64,000 nucleotides of DNA, taken from an uncultured Pseudohongiella sp. (GTDB taxonomy: Bacteria; Pseudomonadota; Gammaproteobacteria; Pseudomonadales; Pseudohongiellaceae). Position 1 is the stretch's first letter. Each line of letters starts with the position of its first letter. The notes under the pieces are model-generated. The model was not told the origin of the DNA and ran no database searches. It saw nothing but the letters and a program-made list of their open reading frames with translations. This document shows, in pieces, positions 9,971 through 48,163 of the stretch. The DNA lies in NCBI GenBank assembly GCA_965221015.1, contig OZ244859.1, forward strand, positions 922,046 to 986,045, given 5' to 3'. Made by a program: the position numbers and the translations under genes.

Positions 9971-10360
9971 CCTATTCAATACCATATTAGGTGTGGTTTT
10001 CCGGCAACCGGGCGCGGCAGCGCAGCACGAAGTGTTGGACCGGAATCAATTTGAGCACAGAGCATCTCAGAGCATCACGGAGTAAAGCCAAGCAAAAGCG
10101 AGCAAAAAAGCACCAATGCATGTAAAATGCCGCAGTCGGCCAGCGTTCGGCCGCGGCAAGCCCGGATTTGCCAGAATGAGAACAGAATGACCAGCGTGAA
10201 ACCACTCGCGAAAGAGGGAATTTCAAAATCAGGTTCAACAGCCCGCCGGCTGTTGGCTGCCGTGCGCGCGAAATGCCCGAGTTGGCCGTTCGCGCGCCTT
10301 GGCGCGCACCCGAAACTTCCCGCTCTTCCGCTCGTGCGATTGGCCGCACGCCTTAGCCAG

Positions 10361-10474
10361 CAACAAAAGCCCGCGCAACAAGAGGCCGCGCAACAAGAGG
10401 CCGCGCAACAAAAAGCCGCGCAACAAAAGGCCCCTCAACAAAGAGCCGCACGACAAAACGCCGCGCACAAGAAT
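10361..10474 (+). repeat. 15-bp tandem repeat, ~7.5 units (caacaagaggccgcg), in frame with the giant ORF
   Basis: The units are caacaaaagcccgcg / caacaagaggccgcg x2 / caacaaaaagccgcg / caacaaaaggcccct / caacaaagagccgca / cgacaaaacgccgcg. If translated they give QQ(E/K)AA pentapeptides. Confidence 0.85.
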
Positions 10475-10534
10475 CCAGCCGTCGCGTTTCCCTTCCTTTA
10501 TATACCCGCCGAATCCCGGCCCGGCCCCGCGCCC

Positions 10535-10654
10535 ATGGCCCGGCGATTTGCCCCGCTGAGCGCCGCCAAGCGCGTTCTCTCCAAGGCGGCGGCCACGCTC
10601 GCCTTGTCAGCGCTCGCGCTCGTGTCCTTGGGGATGAGCGCCTCCGCCCAGGCC
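10535..10654 (+). other. Predicted Sec signal peptide of the giant protein
   Basis: It has a basic n-region (MARRF..KR), a hydrophobic core ATLALSALALVSLG, and an A-Q-A cleavage-type motif ending at 10654. Confidence 0.6.
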
Positions 10655-13600
10655 CAGACGCTGACCTTGACCTTCTCCGATGACGGCAGCACCGTGACCA
10701 TCGACGCCGCTGGCAGTTTGGATTTCTCAGCATCCGGTTCCCGGGCTGATGCAACGATCGGATTCCTAAACGCCATTTTTGTCGATGACACTGACATCTG
10801 GGCCATCGGGGCGGACTCGTCCGGCATCAACAGCCCGGTGAGTACGTATCAACTCTCTGCCTTGACGACCACGGTTAATGAGCCTTTCTCAGGTCCCTCT
10901 TCAGCCGAAAACTTGTCCAACTATAGTGCCGAATTCTACCTCCGATTCACCACCTTCTATAACCGGATGCTGGTAGACCAGGACAATCTCACAGGAGACA
11001 TCTACGATCCAACAGGAGACCAAGTCACGTTCACGGGCACCCTGCAAAGCACCTTGGGCGACAACGACTTCGACATCGAACACGCGTTCGGCAATCAGAA
11101 GATCGTTTTCAAAACCGCGACCCCAGCCACAGTCCCCGCCGCGCCAACCGGCCTGGCGGCGACAGCGGGCAATGCCCAGGTTGACTTGGCTTGGGCCAAC
11201 CCGAACGACAGCAACATCACCAAATACCAGGTCCGCTACGGCGCAGGCGCCACCGTCCCCGCCACCGCCAACTGGGAAGACATCAGCGGCAGCGGCGCCG
11301 GCACCACCAGCCACACCGTCTCCGGCCTGACCAACGCCACCGGGTACGCCTTCGAAATCCGGGCCGTGAACGCCCGCGGCAACAGCAGCGCCTCCGCCAC
11401 CGCGACCGCGACGCCGGCGGAGCCCGACACCACGCCCAGTTTCGGCAGCGAGACCATCGCCGACCAGAACTTCACCCAAAACACTGCCATCGCCACCTTG
11501 ACCCTGCCCGAAGCCACCGGCGGCAATGGCACCCTGACCTACAGCCTGACCCCGAACGCTCCGGCGGGCCTGGCCTTCGACGCCACCAACCGCACCCTCA
11601 CCGGCACTCCCACCGCGGTCCAGAGCGCGACGGCCTACACCTACACCGTCACCGACGCCGACAGCGACACGGCCAGCCTGACGTTCAACATCACCGTCGC
11701 GGCGCCGGGACCAACACCGGCCCAGCCGCAGCACTTCACCGCGAGTGTCTCCCGGGACAATAGTCTGACCACCCGCGGCCAGGTCCAATTGAACTGGGCC
11801 GACCCGTCTGACAGCAGCATCACCAAGTACCAGGTTCGGCACAAGGCGGGCACGAGTTTTCTGTCTCCATCGGATGATGGCTTGTGGACCGATATTTCCG
11901 GCAGCAGCGCCAGCCTCACGCATGTTCTGGTGGGGGATCTGAATTTCGGAACGACTTATGTCCTTCAGGTGCGCGCGGTGAACGCGAACGGCGCCGGAAC
12001 ACCGACCGCGGCACTGACCGCGGCGCCGACGCCGCTGCCTTCCCCGCAAGGCGCCAATGGCAGACTGCTTCACCCGCCCACCAATGTGATGACCCAATCG
12101 CCGGAACCCGGCAAGATCAAAATCTCCTGGGATTGGTATGACCCCACCTGCTCCACGGTGGCGGGCGAACCTTACATATTCGAGGTTGTCTTCAGAAAGC
12201 CCTCGGCAAATTGGTCGACTTCGGGGGTAAACAGCAACGCGGGATCCTACAGCCTCACCTACAACGTCAATGCCGGCGGCAACGTGGAAGAGTGGGAGTT
12301 TCCCAGGTGGGGCATCAATCTTGGCTCTGTTGGGCCCGATGTCGTATTGGACGCGGGCCAGTACGAAGTCAGCGTAAGCTATGGCGGCGGCACCTCGCTC
12401 CTGAGATGCAGTGGATATGGTTCCTGGGCCTCGCCGAAGAGCGTCACCGTGGTGCAGCCGACGACGCCCGACTTCGGCACGGGGACGGTTGCGGATCAGA
12501 CCTTCACCCGGAACACGGCCATCACGCCCCTGGTTTTGCCGGCGGCCACCAGCACCGGCACGCCGATTTACACCTTGACTTCAACGCTGCCCGCGGGCCT
12601 GAGCTTTGATCCCGCCACGCGCACCCTCAGCGGCACCCCGACGGCGCTGCAGGCGGCCGCGACCTACACCTACACGGCCTACAACATCCGGGGCGAAAAC
12701 ACTCAGCTCACGTTCACCATCACCGTCGAGGAGCCGGCATCGGCCCCGGCCGCGCCCACCGGCCTGGCCGCCACCGCCGGCGACACCACGGTCACGCTGA
12801 ACTGGACCGACCCGTCCGACACCAGCATCACCAAGTACCAGGTCCGCTACGGCGCGGGCGCCACCGTGCCGGCCACCGCCACCTGGGACGATATCGACCC
12901 CAGTGACGACCAGACCACCAGCCACACGGTCACCGGCCTCACCAACGCCACCCAATACGCTTTCGAAATCCGCGCCGTCAACGCCAACGGCAACAGCGAC
13001 GCCTCGGCCACCGTCACCGCGACGCCGGAGGCCGACACCACGCCCAGCTTCGGCAGCGAGACCATCGCCGACCAGAGCTACACCAAAGACACGGCGATTT
13101 CCACGCTGACGCTGCCCCAGGCAACCGGCGGCGAGGACCCGCTGACCTACAGCCTGACCCCGAACGCCCCGGCGGGCCTGGCCTTCGACGCCACCAACCG
13201 CACGCTCACCGGCACCCCCACCACGGTCCAGAGCGCGACGGCCTACACCTACACCGTCACCGACAACGACGGCGACACGGCCAGCCTGACGTTCAACATC
13301 ACCGTCGAGGCGCCGGCACCCGCGCCCGCCGCGCCCACCGGCCTGGCCGCCACCGCGGGCGACACTGCGGTCACGCTGAACTGGACCGACCCGTCCGACA
13401 CCAGCATCACCGGATACCAGGTCCGCTACGGCGCGGGTTCCACCGTGCCGGCCACCGCCACCTGGGATGATATCGACCCCAGCGACGACCAGACCACCAG
13501 CCACACCGTCACCGGCCTCACCAACGCCACCCAATACGCTTTCGAAATCCGCGCCGTCAACGCCAATGGCAACAGCGACGCCTCCAGCACTGTCACCGCA

Positions 13601-16600
13601 ACACCGGCACTGGCCGTCCCCGACGCGGTGACGAACCTGACCGCCAGCGCTGGCGGCACGCACGTTTACCTGACCTGGACCAACCCGACCAACGCCACCA
13701 TTACCAACATTCAGGTCCGCTACAAGCCCGCGGCTGACCTGCCGTTCGATGACACCACCGACCTTTGGACCAATCTCGCTGCCACGCGCACGGACTTCGA
13801 CGCGTTTGACCCGACCCCCGACACCGAATACAGGTTTCAAGTGCGGGCCATCAACGCCGCCGGCAACGGCCAGGCGAGCGAGGTGAGCGTGACGACGGGC
13901 ACGGTGCCCAGCGTGGAAGACATCACGCGGCACATGCCAACAACCTCCCCGACCAACGCGAACACGTTGACGTGGCAGGTTGTGTTCAGCGAACTGGTGC
14001 TGTACGGGCAGGCCGGCGGGCCGGGGGCATACGAGGTTGCCTACGACCCGCCGATCGCGAACGCGCCGACGCTGGTCGCGGACAGGCTGGGCGCGGCCCG
14101 CAGATGCGTGCGCCGCGGGGATGCGGGGCTGGCTTTCTCCGTCGAGCTTTACGGCGGCGACCTGGCCAACTACAACGGCACGGTGACGATGACGTTGAAG
14201 TCGGACGGGGTTATCCGAAACTGCGACGGCACCGCGGTCCGGGTCCGGACGCCGACCGGCACCAACGACAACACCTTCGTGGTGGACAACGTGGCGCCGA
14301 CAGTGACGGTCACGGGCGTTTCCGGGACGGTCACCGCAGCGGTTGAGGCGACCTTCACGTTCACCGAGGAGGTCACCGGCTTCGACGTCGGCGACATCGT
14401 CCTAACCAACGCCGCCGCATCGGAATTCTCCGGGTCGGGAACGACCTACAAGGCGATGATCACGCCGGCCGTCGGCGGCGCCTTCAGCGTCGGCATTGCG
14501 GCGGGCGCGGCGCAAGACGCCGCCGGCAACGACAATGCGGCGGCGACTACCGTGACCGCGCAGTACGATGCCACGCCCAGCTTCGGCGCCGGTGTCACGA
14601 TTGCCGACCAGACCTACACCCAGAACGCCGCCATCACCACCTTGAACCTGCCTGAGGCCACCAGCGGCAACGGCACCCTGACCTACAGCTTGACCCCGGC
14701 CGCCCCGGCGGGCCTGGCTTTCGACGCCACCGCCCGCACCCTCTCGGGCACCCCGACCACGCTTCAACAAGCCACGGCCTACACCTACACCGCCACGGAC
14801 GAGGATGGCGACACGGTCAGCCTCACGTTCAACATCACCATCGAATCGCTGACGCCGGCCGCGCCCACCGGTCTGAGCGCCACGGCGGGCGACGCCCTGG
14901 TCGCACTGGCCTGGTCCAATCCGCAGGACAGCACAATCACCAAGTACCAGGTTCGCTACGGCGCGGGTTCCGCCGTGCCCGCCACGGCAACCTGGGGTGA
15001 CATCACCGGCAGCGGCGCGGGCACCACCAGCCACACCGTCACCGGCCTCACCAACGGCACCCAATACGCTTTCGAAATCCGCGCCGTCAACGCCGGCGGC
15101 AACAGCAACGCTTCCAGCACCGTCACCGCGACGCCCGCCCAGTCCCAGACCTCGCAAACCAACGCGCCGTCGATCAGCTTGCTGCAAGCGGGACGCGCCG
15201 GCATGGTGGTGAACTGGAACTGGGTCGACACCACCGGCGGCGCCTGTTCCATGGCCGGAGCCAATTCGAGATTCGTGCTCGAATACAAGAAAGCCACGGA
15301 GCCGAACTGGAAGGGAGCCACGCAACTGACCCCCAACACCGCCGACCATGGCGTGTTCGAGTTGTACAACTCCGAGAATTGGAGCCGGGGCCTGGTGCCC
15401 AGCGGCACCTTGCTCACCATGTTCACCATCGACGCGAACTCCCTGGGCAGGGAGCCTGTCTCCCAGTCCGGCGTGGCGCTGGACGCCGTCCAGTACCAGG
15501 TTCGCCTGCTGGCCCAAAGCGACAGCAGTTCCTGCGACGACACCTACAGCCCCTACAGCGCGATCGCCAGCGTGACCGTGCTTGCGGCGAACCAGGCGCC
15601 CACCGTCACCAGCGCCATCGCGGACCAGTCGGTGGTGGCCGAGGCCAGCGTGACGGTGGACATCTCGTCAACGTTCAGCGACCCGGAAAACGACGCCTTG
15701 ACCTACGCGGCGTCCTCGAACGACACGTCCAAGGCCACGGTGGCGCTGTCCGGCACCACGCTGACGCTGACAGGCACGGGGGCCGGCAGCGCGAAAGTCA
15801 CCGTAACCGCCACCGACCCCTACGGCGATTCCGTATCCGACGAATTCGACGTCACCGTCACCAACAACGCGCCCACGGTGGCGAACGCGATTGCGGACCA
15901 GACGGTGAACACGGGTTCGGACGTGACGGTTGCGCTGGAAACCGCCGGCAGTGAAGTGTTCGCGGACCCGGACAGCCACGCCCTGACGTACTCCGCCACT
16001 TCCAGCGACACAACGCTGGCCACCGTGGCGGTGGACAACGCGGCCAACACGGTGACCGTGACCGGCGTCGCCGCGGGCGCGCCGACCATCACCGTGACCG
16101 CGAGCGACGGCTACGGCGGCACGGTCAGCGACGATTTCATCGTCACGGTGAACCAGGGCAACCGGGCGCCGACGGTGGCGAACGCGGTGGACGACCAATC
16201 CGTGGCGGTGAACGCGACGGTGGATGTGGACGTCTCCGCCGTGTTCACCGACCTCGACAACGACACGCTGACGCTGTCAGTGACTTCCTCCGCCACCGCG
16301 ACCGCGACGGCATCGCTGACCGGCACCACCTTGACCCTGACCGGCGTCGCCCAGGGCACGGCCCAGGTGACGCTGACCGCCGACGACGGCAACGGCGGCC
16401 AGGCCTCGGACACCTTCGACGTCACCGTGACCTCCAGCGCGCCGGTGGTGGCGAACCCGATCGCGGATATCAGAATCTCGACGGTCGTTCCGCGCGACAT
16501 CGACCTGACGCCGGTGTTCAGCGACCCGGATGGAGACACCTTGACCTACAGCGCCTCATCCAGCGACACCAGTCTCGCCTCGGTTTCGCTGACGGGCTCA

Positions 16601-19600
16601 ACGCTGACCGTGAGCGGAGCCTTCTCCCTGGGCACCGCGACGGTGACGGTGACGGCAACCGACACGAGCGGCGCTTCGGTCTCGGACCAGTTCGTAGTCA
16701 CGGTCCAGAACACCATCCGGCCCGCGGCGCCGACCAATTTGAGCCTCGTGGCCGGCGTCGGCGAAATCTCGGTGACCTGGAGCTGGGCCGACAACACCGG
16801 CGGGGTCTGCCTGCTCTCCGGAAACCGGTCGGGCTTTGAGGTCGAATACAAGAAAACCTCGCTCGGGGACGATTGGCACCTGGCCCATGACACCCATCCC
16901 AACGACGTCGACCATGGCGTGTTCGAATTGACCGGCCCGGGCCGGGGCGCCCTGCGGCAATTCGTGATCAAGGAGGGTGCTACGGGGAACGGCGAAGGTC
17001 AAATCGGGGTCGCCCTCGACCCGGTGGACTACGACGTTCGCATACTCGCCTACAGCGGGCCTTGTGAAGACAGTTCGGTGGAGCCGCGCGATCCCAACAG
17101 CGACTACTCCGCCATCGCAACCACCGCGTTGAACAACGCGCCGACGGTGGCCAACGCCATCGCCGACCAGACCGTGCAGGTCGGCTCGGACGTGAGCGTG
17201 GCGCTGGAAACCTCCGGCAGCGAAACCTTCACCGACCCCGACGGCGACACCCTGACCTACACGGTGGCGTCCAGCGACACCGCCAAGGCCACGGTGGCGG
17301 TTTCCGGTTCCACGGTAACCGTAACCGGCGTGGCGGAAGGTGAGTCCACCATCACCGTAACCGCCGATGACGGCAAAACGGGCGGCACCGCCTCCACCAC
17401 GTTCAAGGTGACGGTGACCGCCGCCACCCTCGGCTTCGGCACCCAAACCATCGCTGACCAATCCTGGACCCAGTTCGTCCAGATCACCGACGTAACGCTG
17501 CCCCAAGCCACCGGCGGCAGCGGCGCGCTGAGCTACAGCCTGTCGCCGGCGCTGCCCGCGGGCGTCAGCTTCGACACCGCCACCCGCGTCCTGAGCGGCA
17601 CGCCAAGCGCCTCCCTGGCGGAAACCACCTACACCTACACCGCCACCGACGCCGCCAGCACCACCGCCAGCCTGAGCTTCAAGATCACCGTGGCGGCGGG
17701 CAACCGGGCACCGGTGGTGGCGAGGCCGATACCGGATAGCGGCGTGTGGCTAAACACTCCATTTGGCCATGAAGTTTTTGCCCGGCGCTTGGAACTAGCG
17801 GGCGAGGAAATATTCTCCGATGCCGATGGCGATGCGCTGACCTACTCGGCCACCAGCGCCAACCCCGCCGTGGCCAGCATCAGGAATGTGTTAAACGTGG
17901 TGCCCGACGGGTTGGCCAGCTTGGAAGTCCTGGGGGTAACGGTGGGCACTACGGAGATTACGCTCAGGGCGACGGACCCAAGCGGCGCCTGGGCGGAGGA
18001 CAAGTTCAACATCACCGTCATTGATTCGAACGGCTCGGGACATATGACTTCGTTCGATGACGTCACGATCTCTGTCAATGGCGGCAGGCAGTACGTCAAT
18101 CCCCCGTTGCCGGCAGTCGCCAGCGCGGCCACCGCCAGCTCGTTCTCTGGATTGGCTCTAACGGCAACCAGCGCCAACCCGTCCGTGGCCACGGCGGAGA
18201 TTATCAATCGGGTTAATGGCGTTCGCGGATTCTCGTTCGCAACGTTCAACGTGCGTGTGACCGCGGTGGGAACCGGCGTGACAACGGTCACTGTCACCGC
18301 CAATTCCTCCCTTGCCGCCGATGTGACCGAGACCTTCACCGTAACCGTAACCGGCGCCATCGCCCCCGCCCAGCCATCCAACCTCCGGGCAACGCCGGGC
18401 GACGGCCAGGTGACCCTGAACTGGGACAACCCCTCCGACACCAGCATCAGCAAGTACCAGATCCGCCAGGCCCAGGGCACCACCGTGCCCGACAGCACCG
18501 CCTGGACCGACATCACCGGCAGCGGCGCCGCCACCATCAGCCACATCGTCACCGGCCTGACCAACGGCCAGGCCTACGCCTTCCAAATCCGCGCCGTGAA
18601 CGCCACCGGCGACGGCGCCACCTCGGCCACGGTGACCGCAACGCCGCAGGCCGACTCCGCGCCCAGCTTCGCCGCCGGCGTCACGATTGCCGACCAGACC
18701 TACGCCCAGAACGCCGCCATCGCCACCTTGAACCTGCCCGCGGCCACCGGCGGCAACGGCACCCTGACCTACAGCTTGACCCCGGCCGCCCCGGCGGGCC
18801 TGGCCTTCGACGCCACCGCCCGCACCTTGACGGGCACTCCGACCACGGCCCAGAGCGCGACAGCCTACACGTACACCGCCACCGACGCCGACGGCGACAC
18901 GGCCAGCCTCACGTTCAACATCACCGTCACTGCGGACACCCAAGCGCCGCGGGTGGCGAGCATCGTGCGACATGATCCGCCAACTTCGCCCACCAACGCG
19001 GTGTCCTTGACCTGGCGGGTGACGTTCAGCGAGGCGGTGGTGAATGTGACCGACGATGACTTCCACGTTGGGGGTACGGATGGGACGGAGACGGCGACGG
19101 CAGTCGGCACGGACGGCACCACCTGGGACGTGAACGTGGCCGGTGGCAATTTGGTGGTGCTGGCCGGCACGGTGAACCTGGAGTTCGTGCAAGGCCAGGA
19201 CATCGAGGATACCGCCGGCAACGCGCTGACCGACACCACGCCGACGGGGACCAACGACGACACCTACCTGCTGGACAGGACCCCTCCACACGTAACTTCA
19301 ATTCACCGTTACGACAGCGAAACCGGGAACACCGATGCGAAGTCGCCGACCAACCGGGATTCGGTGCAGTGGTCGGTTCAATACAACGAAAGCATGCGCC
19401 ATTCGGGGGCCGGAAGTGCGGCTGCCTATACGGTTACCTTCGTGCCGGCGATCACGCAGGAGCCGACGCTGACCGTGACCCCGGCGGCCGATGATCCGAA
19501 TGTCTGCGGAGATTTAACGCCCTACGTCGTAAACATTTCCGGCGGCGCGTTGGCTGGCTACAACGGCACGGCCACCTTGACGCTGAATCATGCGCAGGTC

Positions 19601-22600
19601 ACGGACTGCGTTGGCAATACGCTCCGTAACCGGACCCCGCCCCGCGGCAATCAGATTACGTACGAGCTGGACAACACGGCGCCGACGGTGGCCATCACGG
19701 GCGTTTCCGGAACGGTCAACGCAGCGGTGGATGCCACCTTCACCTTCAGCGAGTCCGTCACCGGCTTCGAGGCCGGCGACATCACATTGACCAATGCCGA
19801 CGCTTCGGACTTCGCCCAGCCGGACCCGGCGGCGCCGGTCTACACGGCGAAGATCACGCCGAAGGCCGAGGGCGAGTTCAGCGTCGCCGTGGCGGCGGCC
19901 GTGGCCCAGGACGCCGCCGGCAACGACAACGCCGCCGCGACCACGGTCACCGCGATCTACGACGAACTGGAGCCGCCCGCCAAGCCGAGGAGCCTGGTCG
20001 CCATAGCCGGTGACGCGGAAGTCACCCTGATCTGGGCCAACCCCGGTGACGACAGCATCACCAAGTACCAGATTTTCAATTCTGAAACCGTGGGGATCAA
20101 CCTGTGGGATGACATTCCGGGCAGCGGCGCCGACACCATTACCCACACGGTGACCGGCCTGACCAACGGCACCGAGTACACCTTCCAGATCCGCGCCGTG
20201 GCCGGCAGCCTGCTGGGCGAAGCCTCCGACGCGGTCAAGGCGACGCCGCAAGTGGCGGTCCCGGACGCCCCGGACAACCTGACGGCCACCGCGGGCGACC
20301 GCTCGGTGAGCCTGAGCTGGGACCTGCCCACCAACGCCAGCGCGCTGGACAAGGTGCAGGTGCGCCACCAGGCCCGGGGCGAGACGACCTGGGAGCCCTG
20401 GACCGACCTGGCGGCGGACGCCACCACCCACACCGTGACCAACCTGAAGAACGGCCAGGACTACCTCTTCGAAGTGCGCGCGGAGAGCGCGTCCGGCGCC
20501 GGCCCGGCGGCGCGGACGGCCGGAACGCCGGAGCTGGCGGTCCCCGGCGCCCCGACCGGGCTCAGCGCCACGGCGGGCAACGCCGAAGTGGACCTGGCCT
20601 GGACGCTGCCCACCAACACCAGCGAGATCGACGCCGTGCAGGTGCGCTGGAAGGCCACGGCGGACCTGCCCTTCGACGACGCCCGCGACAAGTGGACCGA
20701 CCTGCCGTCCGCCGACGCCACCAGCCACAAGGTCACCGGCCTGACCAACGGCACCGGCTACACCTTCCAGGTGCGCGCCACCAACAGCGCCGGCAACGGC
20801 GACCCCGCCACCGGCGCGGCGACGCCCCGCGCGCCCCCGCTGGTGACGCCGGGCGCGCCGACCAACCTGAGCACGGTGCCCGGCGACACCGAGGTGGTGG
20901 TGCTGTGGACCCTGCCCACGAACACCAGCCAGATCGACAGCGTCGAGCTGCGCCACAAGGTGAAGACGGACCCCGACACCGGCTGGAGCCAGTGGACCTC
21001 CCTGGCCGGCACGGCGGACCGTTCCCGGGTGACGGGCCTGGTCAACGGCACCGACTACCTGTTCGAGGTCCGCGCGGTGAACACCGCGGGCACCGGCCCG
21101 TCGGCCAGCGTCGAGGGCACGCCGAATCTGGCGAAGCCCTCGTCCCCCAGCAACCTGCAGGCCAGCGCTGGCGACACACAAGTGACCCTGACCTGGGACC
21201 TGCCGGACAAGGGCACCGTGGACAGCATCGACGTGCGCCACAAGAAGAAGACGGACACAAGCTGGGGCCAATGGACCCTGCTGGCGGCGGACGCCACCAC
21301 CAGCACCGTGACCGGCCTCGACAACGGCGTGACCTACGAGTTCGAAGTCCGCGCCACCAACGCCGCCGGCAGCAGCGACCCGGTGGCCGTGGACGCCCAG
21401 CCGAAGCTGGCGGTCCCGGACGCCCCCGGCAACCTGACCGCGGCGCCCGGCGACGGCAAGGTCGGCCTGACCTGGGACCTGCCCACCAACACCAGCGAAA
21501 TCGACAGGATGCAGGTGGCATACAAGCTGAAGAGCGCGGCGAACTTCCAGCCCTGGGTTGACCTGGCGAAAGACGCCACCAGTTACGAAGTCACCGGCCT
21601 GACCAACGGCAGCGAGTACACGTTCATCGTGCGCGCGCTGAACGGCGCCGGCCGCGGCGCCGTGGCGGAGGTGGATTCGACGCCGGTGGCGGTGCCGACC
21701 GCGCCGACCGGCCTGGCGGCCACCCCCGGCGACACCCAGGTCGTCCTGAGCTGGACCCTGCCGGCAAACTCCGGCGTTCTGACCAGGGTGCAGGCGCGCC
21801 ACAAGGCGGACACGGCGAAGGACTGGGAGGCCTGGGTTGACTTGGCCGCGAACGCCACCACCCACACCGTGACGGGGCTGACCAACGGCCAGCTGTACAA
21901 CTTCGAGGTGCGGGCGGAGAACGCCTCCGGCCCCGGCGCGGCGGCGTCGGTCTCGGCCACCCCGGTTCCCCCGCTGGTGGCGCCTGGCGCGCCGACCAAC
22001 CTGAGCACGGTGCCCGGCGACACCGAAGTGGTGGTGCTGTGGACCCTGCCCACCAACACCAGACAAATCGACAGCGTCGAACTGCGCCACAAGGTGAAGT
22101 CGGCCCCCGACACCGGCTGGAGCCAGTGGACCTCCCTGGCCGGCACGGCGGACCGTTCCCGGGTGACGGGCCTGGTCAACGGCACCGACTACCTGTTCGA
22201 GGTCCGCGCGGTGAACACCGCGGGCACCGGCCCGTCGGCCAGCGTCGAGGGCACGCCGAATCTGGCGAAGCCCTCGTCCCCCAGCAACCTGCAGGCCAGC
22301 GCCGGCGACACACAAGTGACCCTGACCTGGGACCTGCCGGACAAGGGCACGGTCGACACCATCGACGTGCGCCACAAGAAGAAGACGGACACGGCCTGGA
22401 GCCAATGGACCTTGCTGGCCAAGGACGCCACCACCCACACCGTGACCGGCCTCGACAACGGCGTGACCTACGAGTTCGAAGTCCGCGCCACCAACGCCGC
22501 CGGCAGCAGCGACTCGGTGGCCGTGGACGCCCAGCCGAAGCTGGCGGTCCCCGAAGCCCCGACGAGCCTGACGGCAACCGGCGGCAACGCCCAGGTCGAA

Positions 22601-34600: not shown

Positions 34601-37600
34601 ATTGCCGCCTCCGGAAGCCTGGATATGTCCAGCTTTAGAGAAGTCGGGGATACGGTGCCGGAAGACATCATCTACATCAAGATAGACGACACCGAAGACT
34701 GGGCATTTCATCCGTCGTCGGTAGGCGGGATCCCGTCGAAGCGCTACGACCAGCTGCCGGACTTCAACATAATCGGAAGGAATACCTACACGGGTACTAC
34801 GTCTATCGACAGCGCGCAAAACTACAGCAACGAGTTCACCATCCGGTTCAGCACCTTCCGCAAGTACATGGTCGTGGACAAGGCCAGCCTCAACGGGGAC
34901 ATCTATAACCCGACGGGCAAAAAGGTCACGCTCTCGGGCACCGTGCTCGGCACCTTCGGCGACAACGACTTCCGCATCGAGCTTGGGATTGGCAACCAGA
35001 AGATCGTTTACACGGCAACACCGCCGCCGGTACCCGCCGCGCCCGCCAACCTGGCCGCCGCGCCCGGCGACACCGAAGTCACCCTGAGCTGGAACAACCC
35101 GAACGATTCCAGCATCACCAGGTACCAGCTCCGCCAGGCCCAGGGCCAAACCGTGCCCGGCAGCACCGCCTGGACCGACATCGCCGGCAGCGGCGCCGCC
35201 ACCACCAGCCACACGGTGTCGGACCTCATCAACGGCCAGCAATACGCCTTCCAGATCCGGGCCGTGAACAACGCCGGCAACAGTGACGCCTCCGACACCG
35301 CCACCGCGACGCCGCGGGCCGATACTGATCCCAGCTTCGGCACCGAGACCATCGCCGACCAGAACTACACCCGCAACACGGCCATCGCCACGCTGACCCT
35401 GCCCGAAGCCACCGGCGGCAACGGCACCCTGACCTACAGCCTGAACCCGGCCGCCCCCGCGGGCCTGAATTTCGACGCCACCAACCGCACCCTCACCGGC
35501 ACCCCGAGCGCGGTCCAGGATGAGACGGCCTACACCTACACGGTCACCGACGCCGACGGCGACACGGCGACACTCACGTTCAACATCACCGTCGCCGAGG
35601 CGGTCGAACCGCCCGCCAAGCCCAGGAACTTCACCGCCGTGGCCGGCGACACGGAAGTCACCCTGAACTGGGAAGATCCCAGGGACGACAGCATCACCAA
35701 GTACCAGATATTCGACTTTGAAAACGTGGGCTTTGACCTGTGGGATGACATTCCGGGCAGCGGCGCCACCACCGCCACCCACACGGTGACCGGCCTGACC
35801 AACGGCACCGAGTACACCTTCCAGATCCGCGCCGTGGCCGGCAGCCTCCCGGGCGACGCCTCCGACGCGGTCAAGGCGACGCCGCAAGTGGCGGTTCCGG
35901 ACGCCCCGGACAACCTGACGGCCACCGCGGGCGACCGCTCCGTGAGCCTGAGCTGGGACCTGCCCACCAACACCAGCGCGCTGGACAAGGTGCAGGTGCG
36001 CCACCAGGTCCGGGGCGAGACCACCTGGGAGCCCTGGACCGACCTGGCCGCGGACGCCACCACCCACACCGTGGCCAACCTGAAGAACGGCCAGGACTAC
36101 CTGTTCGAAGTGCGCGCGGAGAGCGCGTCCGGCGCCGGCCCGGCGGCGCGGGTGGCCGGAACGCCGAAGCTGGCGGTCCCGGACGCCCCCGGCAACCTGA
36201 CCGCCTCCGCGGGCGACGGCGCGGTGGCCCTGACCTGGGACCTGCCCACCAACACCAGCGAAATCGACAATATGCAGGTGGCATACCGTGAGTCCGGCGC
36301 GGCCAACTACCTGCCCTGGGTCGACCTGGCGAAGGACGCCACCAGTTACGACGTCACCGGCCTGACCAACGGCACCGAGTACAACTTCATCGTGCGCGCG
36401 CTGAATGGCGCGGGCCGCGGCGCCGAGGCGCGGGTGGACGCGACGCCCGAGGCGGGGCCGGGCAAGGTGCCGTCCGCGCCGGCCGACCTGGCGGCGACGG
36501 CGGGCGACACCAAGGTTTCGCTGGCGTGGACCCAGTCCCGCGACAACAGCATCACCAAGTACCAGTTCCGCTACGCCGAAGGCGCGTCCGTGCCCGGCAC
36601 CGAGAGCTGGACCGACATCGCCGGCAGCGGCGCCGGCACCACCGGCCACACGGTGACCGGCCTGACCAACGACACCCTGCACGCCTTCGAAATCCGCGCG
36701 GTGAACGCCAACGGCGCCGGCGCGGCCTCGGCGGTGACGGCCACGCCGAAGCTGGCGATCCCCGAAGCCCCCGGCAACCTGACCGCGGCACCCGGCGACG
36801 GCAAGGTCGGCCTGACCTGGGACCTGCCCACCAACACCAGCGAAATCGACAGGATGCAGGTGGCATACAAGCTGAAGAGCGCGGCGAACTTCCAGCCCTG
36901 GGTTGACCTGGCGAAAGACGCCACCAGTTACGAAGTCACCGGCCTGACCAACGGCAGCGAGTACACGTTCATCGTGCGCGCGCTGAACGGCGCCGGCCGC
37001 GGCGCCGTGGCGGAGGTGGATTCGACGCCGGTGGCGGTGCCGACCGCGCCGACCGGCCTGGCGGCGGCCCCCGGCGACACGCAAGTCGTGCTCAGCTGGA
37101 CCCTGCCGACCAACTCCGGCGCGCTGACCAGGGTGCAGGCGCGCCACAAGGCGGACACGGCGAAAGACTGGGAGGCCTGGGTTGACCTGGCCGCGAACGC
37201 CACCACCCACACCGTGACCGGCCTGACCAACGGCGAGCTGTACAACTTCGAGGTGCGGGCGGAGAACGCCTCCGGCCCCGGCGCGGCCGCGTCGGTCTCG
37301 GCCACCCCGGTGCCCCCGCTGGTTGCCCCTGGCGCGCCGACCAACCTGAGCACGGTGCCCGGCGACACCGAGGTGGTGGTGCTGTGGACCCTGCCCACCA
37401 ACACCAGGCAGATCGACAGCGTCGAGCTGCGCCACAAGGTGAAGGCGGCCCCCGACACCGGCTGGAGCCAGTGGACCTCCCTGGCCGGCACGGCGGAGCG
37501 TTCCCGGGTGACGGGCCTGGTCAACGGCACCGACTACCTGTTCGAGGTCCGCGCGGTGAACACCGCGGGCACCGGCCCGTCGGCCAGCGTCGAGGGCACG

Positions 37601-40600
37601 CCGCAGCTGGCGAAGCCCTCGTCCCCGAGCAACCTGCAGGCCAGCGCCGGCGACACAACGGTGACCCTGACCTGGGACCTGCCGGACAAGGGCACCGTGG
37701 ACACCATCGACGTGCGCCACAAGAAGAAGACGGACACAAGCTGGAGCCTCTGGACCCGGCTGGCGGCGGATGCCACCACCACCACCGTGACCGCCCTCGA
37801 CAACGGCGTGACCTACGAGTTCGAGGTCCGCGCCAGCAACGGCGCCGGCAGCAGCGACCCGGTGGCCGTGGACGCCCAGCCGAAGCTGGCGGTCCCCGAA
37901 GCCCCGACGAGCCTGACGGCAACCGGCGGCAACGCCCAGGTCGCCCTGAGCTGGACCCTGCCGACAAACGCCAGCGTGATCGGCGCGGTGCAGGTGCGCT
38001 GGAAGGCCACCGCCGACCTGCCGTTCAGCGCCGGCGACGCCTGGACCGACCTCGCCGGCACGGCCACCGCCTACACGGCCACCGGCCTGACCAACGGCAC
38101 TGGCTACACCTTCGCAGTGCGCGCCACCAACACCGCCGGCGACGGCCCCGCGGCCACCGCCGCGGCCACACCGGCGCTGCCGCCGGGTATTGCGGTGTCG
38201 CCGGACAGCCTCCAGATCAGGCCGGGTGCCAGCGCCACCTTCACCGCGGCGCTGTCCACCGAGCCGAGCGGCACGGTGACCGTGGCCGTGACCAGCAACG
38301 ACAGCGACGTGACGGTGGATTCGGCTTCCTCCAGCCTGACCTTCACCGCCGCGAATTACGCCACGCCGCAAACGGTGACCGTGAACATGGTTGCGAACCC
38401 GGACGACGGCAACGCGACCATCAATCTGGCCGCCAGCGGCGGCGGCTACGCCGGCGTGACCGCCTCGGTGGCGGTGAGCCTGGAGCCCGCGCCCAGCTTC
38501 GGCACGCAGACGGTGGCCGACCAGACCTACAGCCAGGATCTGGCCATCACCACCTTGAACCTGCCCGAAGCCACCGGCGGTGACACTCCGCTGACCTACA
38601 CGCTGACGCCAACGCCCCCGGCGGGATTGGTCTTCGACGCCGCAAACCGCACCCTCGCCGGCACGCCGACCGCGGTCCAGGTTGCGACGCCATACACCTA
38701 TACCGTCACCGATGACAATGGCGACGCGGCAAGCCTCACGTTCAACATCACAATCACCTTGCCGCCGGCGCCGGACGCGCCCACAGGCTTGGCCGCGGTG
38801 GGCAGCGACACCAAGGTCACATTGACCTGGACGGACCCGGGCAACACCTCCATCACCAAGTACCAGCTGCGCTACCGTGAAGGTCCCACCGTGCCCGGCA
38901 CCGCCGACTGGGAGGACATCCCCGGCAGCGATGACACGACCACAACGCACCAAGTGAGCGGCCTTCTCAACGGATACGAATACGCGTTCCAGATTCGCGC
39001 GGTGAACGCCGGCGGCGAGAGCGACCCCTCGGCAACGGTGACGGCAAGGCCGTCGATCGAAGGCCGACCGCCCCCCGCAACCATAGTCAGCGTGGGTCCG
39101 GGCACCAACGACAAAGACCTCGACATTGTCTGGAACTGGAGCCTCGGCGATTCGCCATGCACCATGAATTCCTACACGATCGAATACAAGAGAAGCGATG
39201 CTTCCGAGTGGAACGACCACGCCGCAACTAAGCCGAACTCGCCCGAGCATGGCGTGTTTGAAATCTACGAGGATCTTGGTACCGGGGTCACCAACAAGCG
39301 CAACACGATCAACTTGCAGACCGTTGGTCGCAATCCCGGTGAGGTCGGCGTATCGCTGGATGACACCACTTACGATGTCCGTATCCGCATGTGGTCACTG
39401 GTCTGCTTTGAGTTGGACCAAGACTTTCCAGACCATGAAAGCGGCAGGCCGTTCTACCTGTTGGGCAAGCCGACCAGCTTCACCGCAACGGCGGGTGACG
39501 CGAAGGCGACGCTGGCGGCAACCGTGGCGCAGCGCGGCCCGGCGATCCAGAAGTGGCAGTACACCTACAAAGAGGGCGCCGCCGGCACCTTCATCGACTG
39601 GACCGACATCGCCGACAGCGCTTCCTTGACGATTTCCGACAAGGATGTGGCGGGCCTGACCAACGGCACCACCTATACCTTCAAGGTGCGCGGGGTCCAC
39701 GAGCAAGGCGCGGGCGCCGAGTCGGATGAAGTGATGGTGACGCCGGTGTCCGCGGTGAACACGCCGCCGACGGCTTCCGACAATACCGTCACCACGGATG
39801 AGGACACCGCCTACACCTTTGACGCCGCCGACTTCAACTTCAGTGACGTGGACAGCGGCGACACCCTCGCCAGTGTGAAGATCACCGGCCTTGAAACCGC
39901 CGGCGCGTTGCAGCTGAGCGGCGCCGACGTGACCCTGGACCAGGTGATCACCGCCGCCGATATTGACGGCGACAACCTGACCTTCACCCCGGCGGCCAAC
40001 GCCAACGGCGACCCCTACGCCAGCTTCGGGTTCTCGGTCAACGACGGCACCGACGACAGCACGGCGTCCTACACCATGACCATCGACGTGACGCCGGTGA
40101 ACGACGCGCCCACCGTGGCCAACGCCATCGGCGCCCGTTCGGTGGCCGCCGGCTCGAACCTGACCGTGGCGCTGGAAACCGACGGCAGCGAAGTGTTCAA
40201 CGACGTTGACGGCGACGCGCTGACCTATACGGCCACGTCCGCCACCGAAACCGCGGCGACGGTAACCGTGGACAACGACGCCAACACGATCACGCTGACC
40301 GGCGTCGCGGCTGGCACTTCGGAGATCACTGTGACCGCGGCCGACGGCAACGGCGGTACGGTGAACGACACGTTCACGCTGACGGTCACGGCCGCGCCGC
40401 CGACCAACACCCCGCCGACGGCTTCCGACAATACCGTCACCACGGATGAGGACACCGCCTACACCTTCGACGCCGCCGACTTCAACTTCAGCGACGTGGA
40501 CAGCGGCGACACCCTCGCCAGCGTGAAGATCACCGGTCTTGAAACCGCCGGCGCGTTGCAACTCAGCGGCGCCGACGTGACCCAGGACCAGGTGATCACC

Positions 40601-43600
40601 GCCGCCAGCATAGACGGCGACAACCTGACCTTCACCCCGGTGGCCAACGCCAACGGCGACCCCTACGCAACGTTCCAGTTCAGCGTCAACGACGGCACCG
40701 ACGACAGCACGGCGTCCTACACCATGACCATCGACGTAACCGCCGTGAACGACGCGCCCACCGTGGCCAACGCCATCGGCGCCCGCACCGTGGCCGCAGG
40801 CTCGAACCTGACCGTGGCGCTTGAGACATCTGGCAGCGAAGTGTTCAACGATGTTGACGGCGACACGCTGACCTACTCGGCCACTTCCGCCACCGAAACC
40901 GCCGCGACGGTTACGGTGGACAACGACGCGAACACAATCACGCTGACCGGCGTCGCGGCTGGCACTTCGGAGATCACTGTGACCGCGGCCGACGGCAACG
41001 GCGGTACGGTGAACGACACGTTCACGCTGACGGTCACGGCCGCGCCGCCGACCAACACCCCGCCGACGGCTTCCGACAATACCGTCACCACGGATGAGGA
41101 CACCGCCTACACCTTCGACGCCACCGACTTCAACTTCAGCGACGTGGACAGCGGCGACACCCTCGCCAGCGTCAAGATCACCGGCCTCGAAACCGCCGGC
41201 GCCCTGCAACTGAGCGGCGCCGACGTGACCCAGGACCAAGTGATTCCGGTAGCCAACATCGACGGCGACAACCTGACCTTCACCCCGGCGGCCAACGCCA
41301 ACGGCGACCCCTACGCAACGTTCCAGTTCAGCGTCAACGACGGCACCGACGACAGCGCCGCGTCCTACACCATGACCATCGACGTCACGCCGGTGAACGA
41401 CGCGCCCACCGTGGCCAACGCCATCGGCGCCCGCACCGTGGCCGCAGGCTCGAACCTGACCGTGGCGCTTGAGACATCTGGCAGCGAAGTGTTCAACGAT
41501 GTTGACGGCGACACGCTGACTTATACGGCCACGTCCGCCACCGAAACCGCGGCGACGGTAACCGTGGACAACGACGCCAACACAATCACGCTGACCGGCG
41601 TCGCGGCGGGCACTTCGGAGATCACCGTCACCGCGGCCGACGGCAACGGCGGCAGCGTCACCAACACTTTCACCTTGACCGTGACCTCGGACCCCGGCCC
41701 GACCAACACCCCGCCGACGGCTTCCGACAACACCGTCACCACGGACGAAGACACGGCCTACACGTTTGACGCCGCCGACTTCAACTTCAGCGACGTCGAC
41801 TCCGGCGACACCCTCGCCAGCGTCAAGATCACCGGCCTCGAAACCACCGGCGCCCTGCAACTGAGCGGCGCCGACGTGACCCAGGACCAAGTGATTCCGG
41901 TAGCCAACATCGACGCCGACAACCTGACCTTCACCCCGGCCGCCAACGCCAACGGCGACCCCTACGCAACCTTCCGGTTCTCGGTCAACGACGGCGAAGC
42001 CGACAGCGCCGCGTCCTACACCATGACCATCGACGTGACGCCGGTGAACGACGCGCCCACCGTGGCCAACGCCATCGGCGCCCGTTCGGTGGCCGCCGGT
42101 TCGAACCTGACCGTGGCGCTTGAGACATCTGGCAGCGAAGTATTCAACGATGTCGACGGCGACACGCTGACCTACTCGGCCACGTCCGCCACCGAAACCG
42201 CGGCGACGGTAACCGTGGACAACGACGCCAACACAGTCACGCTGACCGGCGTCGCGGCTGGCACCTCGGTGATCACCGTGACCGCAAACGACGGCAACGG
42301 CGGCAGCGTCACCGACACCTTCACCTTGACCGTGACCTCGGACCCCGGCCCGACCAACACCCCGCCGACGGCTTCCGACAATACCGTCACCACGGATGAG
42401 GACACCGCCTACACCTTCGACGCCGCCGACTTCAACTTTAGCGACGTGGACAGCGGCGACACCCTCGCCAGCGTCAAGATCACCGGCCTTGAAACCGCCG
42501 GCGCCCTGCAACTCAGCGGCACCGACGTGACCCAGGACCAGGTGATCACCGCGGCCAACATCGACGGCGACAACCTGACCTTCACCCCGGCCGCCAACGC
42601 CAACGGCGACCCCTACGCAACGTTCCAGTTCAGCGTCAACGACGGCACCGACGACAGCGCCGCGTCCTACACCATGACCATCGACGTCACCGCCGTGAAC
42701 GACGCGCCCACCGTGGCCAACGCCATCGGCGCCCGCACCGTGGCCGCAGGCTCGAACCTGACCGTGGCGCTTGAGACATCTGGCAGCGAAGTGTTCAACG
42801 ATGTTGACGGCGACACGCTGACCTACTCGGCCACTTCCGCCACCGAAACCGCCGCGACGGTTACGGTGGACAACGACGCGAACACAATCACGCTGACCGG
42901 CGTCGCGGCTGGCACTTCGGAGATCACCGTGACCGCAAACGACGGCAACGGCGGCAGCGTCACCGACACCTTCACGCTGACCGTGACTTCGGACCCCGGC
43001 CCGACCAACACGCCGCCGACGGCTTCCGACAACACGGTCACCACGGATGAAGACACCGCCTACACCTTCGACGCCGCCGACTTCAACTTCAGCGACGTGG
43101 ACAGCGGCGACACCCTCGCCAGCGTGAAGATCACCGGCCTTGAAACCGCCGGCGCCTTGCAACTGAGCGGCGCCGACGTGACCCAGGACCAAGTGATTCC
43201 GGTAGCCAACATCGACGCCGACAACCTGACTTTCACCCCGGCCGCCAACGCCAACGGCGACCCCTACGCAACCTTCCGGTTCTCGGTCAACGACGGCGAA
43301 GCGGACAGCGCCGCGTCCTACACCATGACCCTCGACGTGACGCCGGTGAACGACGCACCCACCGTGGCCAACGCCATCGGCGCCCGTTCGGTGGCCGCCG
43401 GCTCGAACCTGACCGTGGCGCTTGAGACATCTGGCAGCGAGGTGTTCAACGACGTTGACGGCGACACGCTGACTTATACGGCCACTTCCGCCACCGAAAC
43501 CGCGGCGACGGTAACCGTGGACAACGACGCCAACACGATCACGCTGACCGGCGTCGCGGCTGGCACTTCGGAGATCACTGTGACCGCGGCCGACGGCAAC

Positions 43601-46600
43601 GGCGGTACGGTGAACGACACGTTCACGCTGACGGTCACGGCCGCGCCGCCGACCAACACCCCGCCGACGGCTTCCGACAATACCGTCACCACGGATGAGG
43701 ACACCGCCTACACCTTCGACGCCGCCGACTTCAACTTCAGCGACGTGGACAGCGGCGACACCCTCGCCAGCGTCAAGATCACCGGCCTCGAAACCGCCGG
43801 CGCCTTGCAACTGAGCGGCGCCGACGTGACCCGGGACCAGGTGATCACCGCCGCCAACATCGACGCCGACAACCTGACCTTCACCCCGGCCGCCAACGCC
43901 AACGGCGACCCCTACGCGACCTTCCGGTTCTCGGTTAACGACGGCGAAGCCGACAGCACGGCGTCCTACACCATGACCATCGACGTGACGCCGGTGAACG
44001 ACGCGCCCACCGTGGCCAACGCCATTCCGGACCAGACCGCGATTGTGGCCAGCGCCTTCAGCTACGCCTTCCCGGCGGACACCTTCACGGACGTCGACAA
44101 CGACAGCTTGACTTACACCGCGCAGCAGTCTAACGGTACCGCGCTGCCGACCTGGTTGAGCTTTACCGCCGCCACGCGCACCTTCTCCGGCACGCCGCAG
44201 ACAGCGGACGAAGGCACGCTCTCGGTGCAAGTGACGGCGAACGACGGCAACAACGGCCAAGTCTCGGATACCTTCGACATCACGGTCGTGGGCACGCCGG
44301 ACGCGCCCACCGGCCTGACCGCGACAGCAGGCGACGGACAGGTCAGCCTGAGCTGGAACAACCCGACCGATTCCAGCATCACCAGGTACCAGCTCCGCTA
44401 CGGCGCCGGCGCCACCGTGCCCGACAGCGCCACCTGGGCGGACATCGGCGGCAGCGGCGCCGCAACCACGTCCCACACGGTGACCGGCCTGTCCAACGGC
44501 ACGCAATACGCCTTCGAGATTCGCGCGGTCAACGCCGCCGGCAACAGCGACGCCTCCGATACCGCAACCGCAACCCCGGCAGCCTCCGGCGGTGGTGGCG
44601 GCGGCGGCGGTGGCGGCACCGACCTGACGCCCACATTTGGCAATGCGGAGATTGCCGACCTGAGCTTCACCAAGGACGAGGCCATCGAAACGCTGACGCT
44701 GCCCCGGGCAACCAGCGGCAACGGTACGCTGACCTACAGCCTCAGCCCGGCCCTGCCGGCGGGCCTCAGCTTCAACGCAGCGACCAGACAGCTATCCGGC
44801 ACGCCGACCGAAGCATTCGCGCAAACCGAGTTCAGCTACACCGCCACCGACGTCGACGGCGACAGCGCCACGTTGACCTTCAACATCACCGTGGTGGAAG
44901 CGGACGTGGCCCCGAGCTTCGGCGACGCATCCATAGCCGACCAGAACTACATCCAAAACGCGGCCATCGATCCGCTGACCCTGCCCGAAGCGACAGGCGG
45001 CAACGGAACCTTGAGCTACAGCCTCGAACCAGCCGCGCCGGCGGGCCTGAGCCTGGATGCCGCCGCGCGAATCCTGAGCGGAACGCCGACCGAAGCCCAA
45101 GCCGCCGGTGGCTACACCTGGACCGCCACCGACGAAGACGGCGACACGGCCAGCCTCAGCTTCAGCATCCGAGTCGCCGCCGCGCTCAGTCTGGCCGGTG
45201 TGGCCGATACCGAGGTCGCGGAGAACAACGCCTACAGCGCCGAGGCCACACTCGAAGGCACCCCGCTGGGCGAAGTCGCCTGGAGCCTGACAGGCGCCGA
45301 CGCGGCCCTGTTCGCACTGACGAATGAAAGCGGCGGTGGCGCAACCGTGTCGCTGGCCGCGCAAGACTTCGAAAACCCGGCCGACGCCGACGGCAACAAC
45401 ACCTATGTCTACAGCCTGAGCGCCACCGACGCCGACGGCAACAGCGTAAGCCGGCGCGCGGTGGTCACCGTGACCGATGTGCGCGAAGCCGTGGAACTGA
45501 CGGTGGCTGGTTTGTCCGGCGGTTCGGCCGACGTGGCGGAAAACGCACCCTACAGCGACACGGCGACATTGGAAGGCACCCCCGTGGGCGCTGTCGAATG
45601 GTCGCTGACCGGCCCCGACGCCGCCCTGTTCAGCCTGTCCGGTGAAAGCGACAGCGGCGTGACAGTTTCGCTGCCCGCCCAGGATTTCGAGAATCCGGCG
45701 GACGCCAATGGCGACAATGCGTACCAGTACACCTTGACCGCCACCGATGCCGACGGCAATGTCGCCACGCTCGAAGTGACCGTCCGCATCACCGACGAAG
45801 CCGACACCGCGACCGTGCCCCAGGCGCCGGCCGCGCCAAGGCTCGAAGCCGGCGACAAGCGCATCGCTGTGGCCTGGTCCGCGCCGGCGGATGACGGCGG
45901 CAGCGCCATCACCGGCTACACCGTGCAGTGGAAGCCGGCCGCCGCCAGCTGGCCGCAGCCCGCGCCGGACAACAGCGCCAACCTGGGCGCCAACGCAAGC
46001 AGCTTCACCATTGACGGCCTGGTCAACGGCACCACCTACGAAGTGCGCGTCCTGGCGCGCAACGCGGTCGGCGACGGCGCCTGGTCCGATGCGTCCCGCG
46101 CCACGCCGATGGCGGTGACGGATGTTTCGCGCCTCTACAGCGACGTGAACGAAGCCCTGCTGCCGCGCATCGGCCAGACCATCCTCGACGGTTCGATCAC
46201 CGCCGTGCGGAACCGGCTCGACTTGGTCGGCCAGCCGACACCCGCGCCCGAAGAAAGCAGCTTCGTGGCGAATTTCGGCGGCTACCGCTTCACCGGCGCG
46301 GCACCGCAAACCTACAACTACAACCAGCCCGCCGCGGGCTTCACCATCGGCGACGACCGGCTCGCGCTCGCGCTCGCGCTGGATGAGCTGGATCTGCCGG
46401 CGGCCAACTCGATGCCGGGCTTGCAAGGCATGCGCGACAGCGGCGTCTTCGGCCTGGCGACCAGCGGTCCAAACTCCGCGGCCAATGTCGAAGGCGCCAG
46501 CAACATGGGCGGCGCGGCCGGCCGGCGCGGAACCTCCGCCGCGGGCGGCATGGGCCGCAGCGGTGGAAGCTCCGGCATGGGTGGCATGGGCCGTTCGGCT

Positions 46601-48163: not shown

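Follow-up and report, generated by a model that had tools for sequence, protein, structure and literature searches.

The largest autotransporter known when it was reported is BigE, a predicted protein of 10,429 amino acids (aa) from Betaproteobacteria (Celik et al., 2012; PMC3419190). The largest barrel among 47 reference autotransporters is at most 294 aa long (PMC3419190), and all solved autotransporter barrels have 12 strands (PMC3419190; PMC6555100). In type Ve proteins, the folding of tandem Ig-like passengers outside the cell drives secretion (PMC6555100). Here we describe a giant gene in a window of 64,000 nucleotides from an uncultured Pseudohongiella sp. (GenBank assembly GCA_965221015.1, contig OZ244859.1, positions 922,046 to 986,045), the window being the whole stretch of DNA that was analysed and the source of all positions given below. 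We propose, with a probability of about 0.7, that its product is a type V (autotransporter) cell-surface adhesin or fibre with the topology of type Va, namely a signal peptide, a passenger and a C-terminal translocator. The proposal draws on sequence features, family membership and a predicted fold, and from these we infer how the protein is exported, that it is exposed at the surface and that it acts as an adhesin. The features of the gene, all on the plus strand, are as follows:

10535–48163, plus strand: coding sequence of the giant protein, 12,542 aa and a stop codon, placed by the open frame, the signal peptide and the GC content at third codon positions (GC3)
10535–10654, plus strand: Sec-type signal peptide with a positively charged n-region, a hydrophobic core and an AQA-QT cleavage motif, read from the sequence
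10655–11140, plus strand: tip module of about 162 aa, of no known family, directly after the signal peptide
11141–39757, plus strand: stalk of fn3, He_PIG, Big_12 and Big_9-like modules and about ten modules without a family, from Pfam, a map made with the protein's own profiles and self-megablast
39758–44284, plus strand: seven tandem 216-aa double modules, Cadherin_5 plus Big_9/Cadherin_4, repeating every 648 bp at about 92% DNA identity
44285–46087, plus strand: membrane-proximal fn3, He_PIG and Big_9-like modules, from Pfam and the protein's own profiles
46124–46222, plus strand: junction segment VSRLYSDVNEALLPRIGQTILDGSITAVRNRLD, containing VNEALLPRIG and resembling the family RVNxxILPxV motif that precedes the translocator
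46418–46840, plus strand: Gly/Met-rich low-complexity spacer of 141 aa (58 G, 26 M; MGGMG and GMNGMG repeats), just before the helix
46853–46921, plus strand: predicted linker, an alpha-helix (46853–46894) and a conserved extended SSF segment (46901–46921) in the AlphaFold model, a candidate lumen-traversing element
46937–48160, plus strand: predicted outer-membrane beta-barrel, from PF03797, AlphaFold and Foldseek, with strands assigned by DSSP
47825–47878, plus strand: disordered Gly/Met-rich barrel loop in the AlphaFold model
48128–48160, plus strand: C-terminal beta-signal ending VLLDFRMNF, read from the sequence

The reading frame itself is beyond what chance could provide. From 10127 to 48163 the plus strand holds a single frame of 12,678 codons without a stop, where one would be expected every 50 codons or so at the local base composition, and the chance of a run this long is about 1e-111. 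In 3-kb bins, GC3 stays between 0.85 and 0.95 from 13127 to the end of the gene and is 0.79 in the first bin, which starts at 10127 and includes the leader. The ATG at 10535 is most likely the real start, because it is the sole start that yields a full signal peptide (MARRFAPLSAAKRVLSKAAATLALSALALVSLGMSASAQA, cleaved before QT) and because GC3 falls upstream of it; read off the translation, the parts of this peptide are MARRFAPLSAAKRVLSK, AAATLALSALALVSLGM and SASAQA-QT. Starting the gene at the ATG at 10127 was rejected in view of a GC3 of 0.62 in 10127–10534 and of the DNA tandem repeats in that interval. A first-pass annotation, made by a model from the letters and a list of open reading frames (ORFs), had described a stop-free frame of some 38 kb and 12.5k codons with a signal-peptide-like N-terminus. 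Its length, its start at 10535 and its signal peptide all stand; only the extent of the open frame needs correcting, since this begins 408 nt upstream of the start.

The last 400 or so residues carry the assignment. A 440-aa C-terminal slice matches the autotransporter barrel family PF03797 at 28.4 bits (E = 1.7e-6; cut-off 26), the final residue is F, and residues 1, 3, 5, 7 and 9 from the end are hydrophobic. AlphaFold was run twice, with alignments of 23 and then 66 sequences, and returned identical secondary structures with a predicted local distance difference test score of 76 and then 83.2 and a predicted template modelling score of 0.70 and then 0.77. The model comprises a helix at residues 5–18, the extended SSF segment at residues 21–27 and then 18 DSSP strands up to the terminal VLLDFRMNF, all within about 405 aa; the count becomes 20 if the kinked strand at 98–117 is split and the SSF segment is included. 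Barrel closure and the exact strand count were read from DSSP strings only, and a place for the helix in the lumen is presumed. With the C-terminus in the periplasm, the helix would begin outside the cell whether there are 18 or 20 strands, which is the topology of an autotransporter. PF03797 aligns to model residues 39–251 (HMM positions 6–207 of 255), that is to the first ten strands or so, and about 190 residues with eight short strands lie beyond the aligned part. In Foldseek, the best match is the BrkA beta-domain (TMt 0.57 over about 270 columns), followed by EspP, AIDA-I, Hbp and EstA, and TonB-dependent receptors of 22 strands appear at TM-scores of 0.40–0.45 normalised by query length. 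The first-pass annotation had seen a barrel-like end of about 400 aa closing in LLDFRMNF, which the PF03797 match, the predicted helix and large barrel and the alternating hydrophobic end all bear out; where it had looked to a 12-stranded barrel, the prediction gives 18–20 strands over about 400 aa.

Upstream of the barrel, members of the family share an order of elements: an RVNxxILPxV junction, then the helix, then the SSF strand. F22 of the SSF motif is invariant in alignment A1 and nearly invariant in A4, and RVNxxILPxV is conserved upstream of the translocator in the homologues, as seen in the consensus of alignments A2 to A4 and in a separate alignment of the tails. The junction segment at 46124–46222 was matched to this motif by eye, and the tail alignment did not put it in the RVNxxILPxV columns. 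The Gly/Met-rich spacer and barrel loop may serve as a flexible tether; that their Met-rich motifs recall Cu(I)-binding sequences is a speculation.

Family membership strengthens the case. Relatives of the C-terminal domain were sought exhaustively with HMMER among 1.84 billion representatives of 50%-identity clusters; 2,902 clusters match at E ≤ 1e-3, of which 1,652 also pass E ≤ 1e-10 and 194 pass E ≤ 1e-30. In the best 150 of these 2,902 matches, the domain sits at the C-terminal end of proteins of up to 6,523 aa; the window protein, at 12,542 aa, is the longest among the family members seen. The conserved translocator spans 370–385 aa, F or W is the last residue in 132 of the 151 family sequences retrieved, and PF03797 matches every one of the 23 aligned family domains, with a best E of 6.8e-16. 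Judged by these sequence comparisons, homology to autotransporter barrels is solid at the level of the family, because all 23 domains match PF03797, although the window domain's own score is marginal. Thirteen long members scanned with Pfam carry fn3, He_PIG, Calx-beta, PKD, Big_5/9/12, cadherin or LRR passengers, and beta-helix families of the pertactin/AIDA type are absent from these 13. A beta-sandwich passenger joined to this translocator is thus a recurrent architecture, and the idea of a one-off protein does not survive a family of some 2,900 clusters whose passengers are made of fn3, He_PIG, Calx-beta, PKD, cadherin and Big modules. On the predicted fold, we place the translocator in a branch of the PF03797 superfamily that is widespread, divergent and uncharacterised, exceeds classical barrels by about 100 aa and has a predicted 18–20 strands. 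Other routes to homologues gave little: word-indexed searches retrieved one protein with the C-terminal domain alone and three with alignment A1, a search of genome contigs with the single domain found no relative, and tblastn of the barrel against the PLSDB plasmids had no match.

The passenger is as unusual in its composition as in its length. Pfam, run on the protein in three overlapping chunks, confirms the dozens of fn3, He_PIG and cadherin-like modules that had been expected, with about 56 fn3 and 19 He_PIG stretches, 13 Cadherin_5, 11 Cadherin_4, and Big_9, Big_12 and Big_2. A domain map made with hidden Markov models (HMMs) trained on the protein's own modules resolves 103 modules (58 fn3, 18 He_PIG, 17 Big_9-like, 7 Cadherin_5 and 3 Big_12) and leaves about a dozen segments of 70–250 aa without a family. 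Neither the Pfam matches nor this map include the beta-helix families Pertactin, AIDA or PATR in the passenger. Cadherin-like modules are confined to 39758–44284. The 162-aa tip module and the other segments without a family have no Pfam match even at E ≤ 0.5; the tip module (about 162–165 aa, signature TLTFSDDG...GNQKI[IV]FK) is a candidate ligand-binding head domain. Diverged copies of it, with 49–60% mutual identity, stand at 26063–26569, 29681–30220 and 34517–35038, and each opens a super-repeat, the super-repeats of the stalk being spaced 3.6–4.8 kb apart with 77–95% DNA identity by self-megablast. Because the tip module heads three internal super-repeats, we conclude that the gene grew by in-frame replication of whole passenger units. 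The protein has 14 Cys, all in seven pairs 34–96 residues apart (residues 539/625, 1191/1230, 1571/1667, 2092/2177, 2991/3025, 4269/4308 and 9542/9624); five pairs lie within modules without an assigned family and two span a module boundary.

The closest homologue, among the best 150 of the 2,902 matches, is WP_446830453.1 (P0002) of Candidatus Foliamicus sp., whose translocator is 65% identical. Its locus (L083) is part of a 2.45-Mb contig with 94x coverage. The homologous giant gene there (1–13619) is read as three overlapping ORFs of 5,502, 116 and 1,872 aa, about 7,490 aa in total, a split caused either by frameshifts or by long-read indel errors. Further along, past an aldehyde dehydrogenase and an IS481-type transposase, lies a second giant gene of the fn3/He_PIG kind, with at least 4,442 aa (16798–21619). 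The tip module occurs three times at L083 (1265–1714, 17758–18225 and 18796–19275), in both giant genes. In the tail alignment, the Gly/Met spacer is common to the window protein and P0002 and absent from the other family members, and the Gly/Met-rich barrel loop is likewise shared with the Ca. Foliamicus homologue only. The cadherin double modules (39758–44284 in the window, 7681–10265 in L083) are 91–93% identical at the amino acid level, compared with 65% for the translocator and about 43% for the junction region, which suggests that repeat cassettes are exchanged or evolve in concert.

A mechanism consistent with these features can be outlined. The Sec system would export the protein by way of its N-terminal signal peptide, and the machinery for assembly of beta-barrels (BAM) would recognise the last 400 or so residues through the F-ending beta-signal, so that an outer-membrane barrel would form with the helix and the SSF segment in its lumen. 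The passenger of about 11,800 aa would then be threaded out from its C-terminal end (C-to-N). By analogy with the Ig-like arrays of inverse autotransporters, export would probably be driven by the successive folding of 100-plus beta-sandwich modules outside the cell, possibly stabilised by Ca2+. The product would stay tethered through the flexible Gly/Met-rich spacer, and at about 4 nm per module its stalk would measure about 0.4–0.5 µm, with the 162-aa module at the tip.

Several observations weigh against an autotransporter of the Va type. The PF03797 score of the window domain is marginal, a 520-aa slice reaching 25.8 bits, under the cut-off of 26; the NCBIfam autotransporter models do not match the C-terminal domain, and PDB sequence searches with it return low-complexity matches or none. 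Strand count and barrel closure were read from DSSP strings, no solved structure in the Foldseek search matches the whole model (best query-normalised TM-score 0.45), and one helix would not plug a lumen of 18–20 strands. The NCBI name of WP_446830453.1 is just 'putative Ig domain-containing protein', and related Pseudohongiella genomes are without the gene at this locus, so conservation cannot support function. Large disulfide-bonded loops are reported to block or hinder translocation in classical autotransporters, and the passenger contains the seven widely spaced Cys pairs described above; in addition, synthesis of the barrel would begin only after a chain of 12.5k aa had spent many minutes in the periplasm. 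The oversized predicted barrel, the Cys pairs and the long periplasmic wait strain a purely classical mechanism, and a mechanistically distinct type V subclass therefore stays a live rival. This rival would make the barrel an anchor or exit collar only, with the passenger crossing otherwise than by Va hairpin threading, either partly folded through a wider lumen or with the help of the translocation and assembly module (TAM) or another partner. The Cys pairs and the extreme passenger length point to such a non-classical crossing, as does a translocator of about 400 aa and a predicted 18–20 strands, compared with 12 in every solved autotransporter, that is joined only to beta-sandwich passengers in the 13 long members scanned. 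We nevertheless think this unlikely, in view of the PF03797 homology over the first ten or so strands and the same helix-then-barrel order, which argue for a shared Va mechanism; neither the window nor L083 has a partner gene beside the giant gene, and the strand count is itself a prediction. Somewhat better placed, although we offer it tentatively and would not bet on it, is the idea that the 400-aa translocator defines a distinct and widespread type V subclass with a Va-like C-terminal barrel of about 18–20 strands, dedicated to very long tandem beta-sandwich passengers and having a wider pore or a different BAM/TAM hand-over that tolerates partly folded or disulfide-bonded modules. The first-pass annotation had left room for export by a route not yet described. 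Nothing requires one, and that suggestion, which stays a lesser possibility, draws only on how large the barrel is predicted to be and on how long the passenger is.

The remaining alternatives concern the nature of the gene and the identity of its exporter. The assembled ORF might not be a genuine single gene of such length, the repeats being inflated, paralogues joined, or a decaying pseudogene-like locus left open by chance. The locus does contain a perfect direct repeat of 1,157 bp (28244–29400 = 33080–34236) amid surrounding repeats that are only about 85–92% identical, as well as further exact internal repeats of 150–371 bp. The 1,157-bp repeat indicates either recent gene conversion or assembly ambiguity in the copy number of the super-repeats, and short reads could therefore not fix that number. 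Three further copies of the 162-aa 'N-terminal' module lie within the gene, as though whole passengers had been concatenated, and the Ca. Foliamicus homologue is broken into ORFs. However, GC3 is uniform at 0.85–0.95 over the open 38 kb; most internal repeats are 77–95% identical rather than identical, and every listed exact-repeat offset is divisible by 3, as expected for in-frame duplication and gene conversion. The ORF has a single signal peptide and a single barrel, the tip module's internal copies have no signal peptide and are bordered in frame by fn3 modules, BigE likewise shows an eight-fold replication of its passenger (PMC3419190), and the homologous gene on the 94x-coverage contig also exceeds 7k aa. 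An artefact or a decaying locus is thus quite improbable; the existence of the gene is secure, and its exact length and copy number need long-read confirmation. Still less credible, to the point of being almost negligible, is a repeat adhesin of the LapA/SiiE/MpIBP type exported by a type I secretion system (T1SS) whose genes lie elsewhere in the genome. In size class and in its tandem modules of Ca-binding type (cadherin-like, Big_9, He_PIG), the protein does resemble adhesins with repeats-in-toxin (RTX) sequences (PMC7493085). The window protein, though, carries a predicted membrane barrel with an outer-membrane protein beta-signal at its C-terminus and a cleavable Sec signal peptide at its N-terminus. 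T1SS substrates are not known to have a cleavable Sec signal peptide. As the first-pass annotation had noted, RTX repeats are missing: GGxGxD occurs once, compared with 0.7 expected by chance, the full nonapeptide never, and the Pfam scans give no HemolysinCabind match. Together with the PF03797 family, the AlphaFold model and the BrkA match, the lack of RTX features in the protein and of T1SS genes in the 64-kb window upholds its description of an exceptionally long type-V-like protein with a beta-sandwich passenger.

The surroundings of the gene offer hints about its regulation and distribution. The elements outside the coding sequence are these:

8521–9099, minus strand: extracytoplasmic function (ECF) sigma factor, by Pfam, divergent from the giant gene
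9127–9693, minus strand: EF-hand Ca-binding protein, by Pfam, divergent from the giant gene
9941–9969, plus strand: sigma-70-like promoter candidate upstream of the giant gene, TTGACA-17-AACAAT, a pattern match only
10360–10472, plus strand: about six copies of a 15-nt or so tandem repeat, GCCGCGCAACAAGAG-like and rich in CAACAA, within the leader of about 570 nt, read from the sequence
48735–49928, minus strand: thiolase, convergent, downstream of the giant gene
50897–52327, minus strand: ORF of 477 aa without a Pfam match, conserved at about 80% identity and in synteny with a UGSC-family gene and the thiolase across Pseudohongiella-like metagenome-assembled genomes (MAGs)

The promoter candidate matches 10 of 12 consensus positions, in a scan that found 3 sites in the region where 0.4 would be expected. 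The leader repeats are in frame with the ORF, where their translation would be QQEAAQQKAA, and, given the GC3 of 0.62 in 10127–10534, they are probably non-coding; no obvious Shine-Dalgarno sequence precedes the ATG at 10535, and the repeats or the leader as a whole may be a post-transcriptional control element. The EF-hand and ECF sigma genes may form a Ca-responsive regulatory unit for the adhesin. Pfam over the 64-kb window agrees with the expected ECF and thiolase neighbours, and finds no ABC, membrane fusion protein or TolC genes of a T1SS and no TpsB, Omp85/POTRA, BamA or TamA genes; neither Rfam nor a tRNA scan gave a match in the window. The thiolase is 91–94% identical to thiolases of Pseudohongiella and other Pseudomonadales MAGs, and the host is therefore a diderm marine gammaproteobacterium. 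Related Pseudohongiella genomes keep the order of the 477-aa ORF, the UGSC-family gene and the thiolase, and nothing within 3-kb flanks of their thiolase locus matches the ECF sigma factor, the EF-hand protein or the giant protein itself, which is why the giant gene appears to be accessory.

Giant autotransporters have been known since BigE in 2012, whereas a family with a long translocator and beta-sandwich passengers is not described in the literature searched; it contains no account of C-terminal autotransporter barrels that bear He_PIG, fn3 or cadherin passengers, and Ca. Foliamicus is not described there either. At 12,542 aa, the window protein would exceed BigE. The class also seems to be under-annotated, given that its closest homologue is named only as an Ig domain-containing protein. 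Current models of type V secretion, including those of pore size, hairpin threading, folding-driven export and the limits set by disulfide loops, rest on 12-strand barrels with nearly all beta-helix passengers. How general these rules are would be put to the test by a large environmental family that combines an oversized barrel with Ig-like arrays reaching 12.5k residues. The relatives come from marine MAGs, and an fn3- and cadherin-rich adhesin of about half a micrometre would be a candidate for attaching cells to hosts or particles.

Set beside the known systems, the window protein shares with the Va autotransporters BrkA, EspP, AIDA-I, Hbp and EstA a Sec signal, a passenger, a helical linker, a C-terminal barrel and a terminal aromatic beta-signal; their barrel family, PF03797, aligns to the first 210 or so barrel residues, and BrkA is the best structural match. 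It departs from them in the size of its translocator (about 400 aa and a predicted 18–20 strands, compared with at most 294 aa and 12 strands), in a passenger of 100-plus beta-sandwich modules where theirs is typically a beta-helix (EstA excepted), and in lacking an autochaperone-type region. BigE, which already contradicts the assumption of the first-pass annotation that type Va proteins are far shorter (PMC3419190), likewise exceeds 10k aa and arose through a whole passenger unit being replicated several times, but its passenger is BrkA-like and beta-helical and its barrel of the EstA type and 12-strand class, whereas the window protein is about 2,100 aa longer, with beta-sandwich modules and a long translocator. 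The RTX/T1SS adhesins LapA, SiiE, MpIBP and FrhA resemble it in size class, in a tandem stalk of Ca-type beta-sandwiches and in a presumably adhesive distal module, and differ in that the window protein has no RTX repeats, T1SS signal or nearby T1SS genes and has instead a Sec signal and a C-terminal barrel. A match to the haemagglutination-activity domain of two-partner secretion (type Vb) was likewise not found by Pfam in the N-terminal region. The Ca. Foliamicus homologue is the nearest in kind, with the same Gly/Met spacer and loop, cadherin double modules and 162-aa tip module, and is set apart by its split into three ORFs (about 7,490 aa) and by a different neighbourhood (aldehyde dehydrogenase, IS481 transposase and second giant gene). 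The type Ve proteins intimin, invasin, YeeJ and SinH have a comparable long tandem passenger of Ig-like/Big modules, and folding of the modules outside the cell, as shown for them, is by analogy the most likely energy source here too (PMC6555100). In type Ve, however, a 12-strand IAT_beta barrel is N-terminal and the passenger C-terminal, whereas the barrel of the window protein is C-terminal and its first 1,000 aa give only fn3, He_PIG and DUF4998-like Pfam matches, with no N-terminal inverse autotransporter (IAT) barrel found. The best reading is therefore that of a Va-type autotransporter in its workings that carries a type-Ve-like passenger, and the family to which it belongs would be a natural mirror image of the inverse autotransporters, with the same kind of passenger in the opposite topology.

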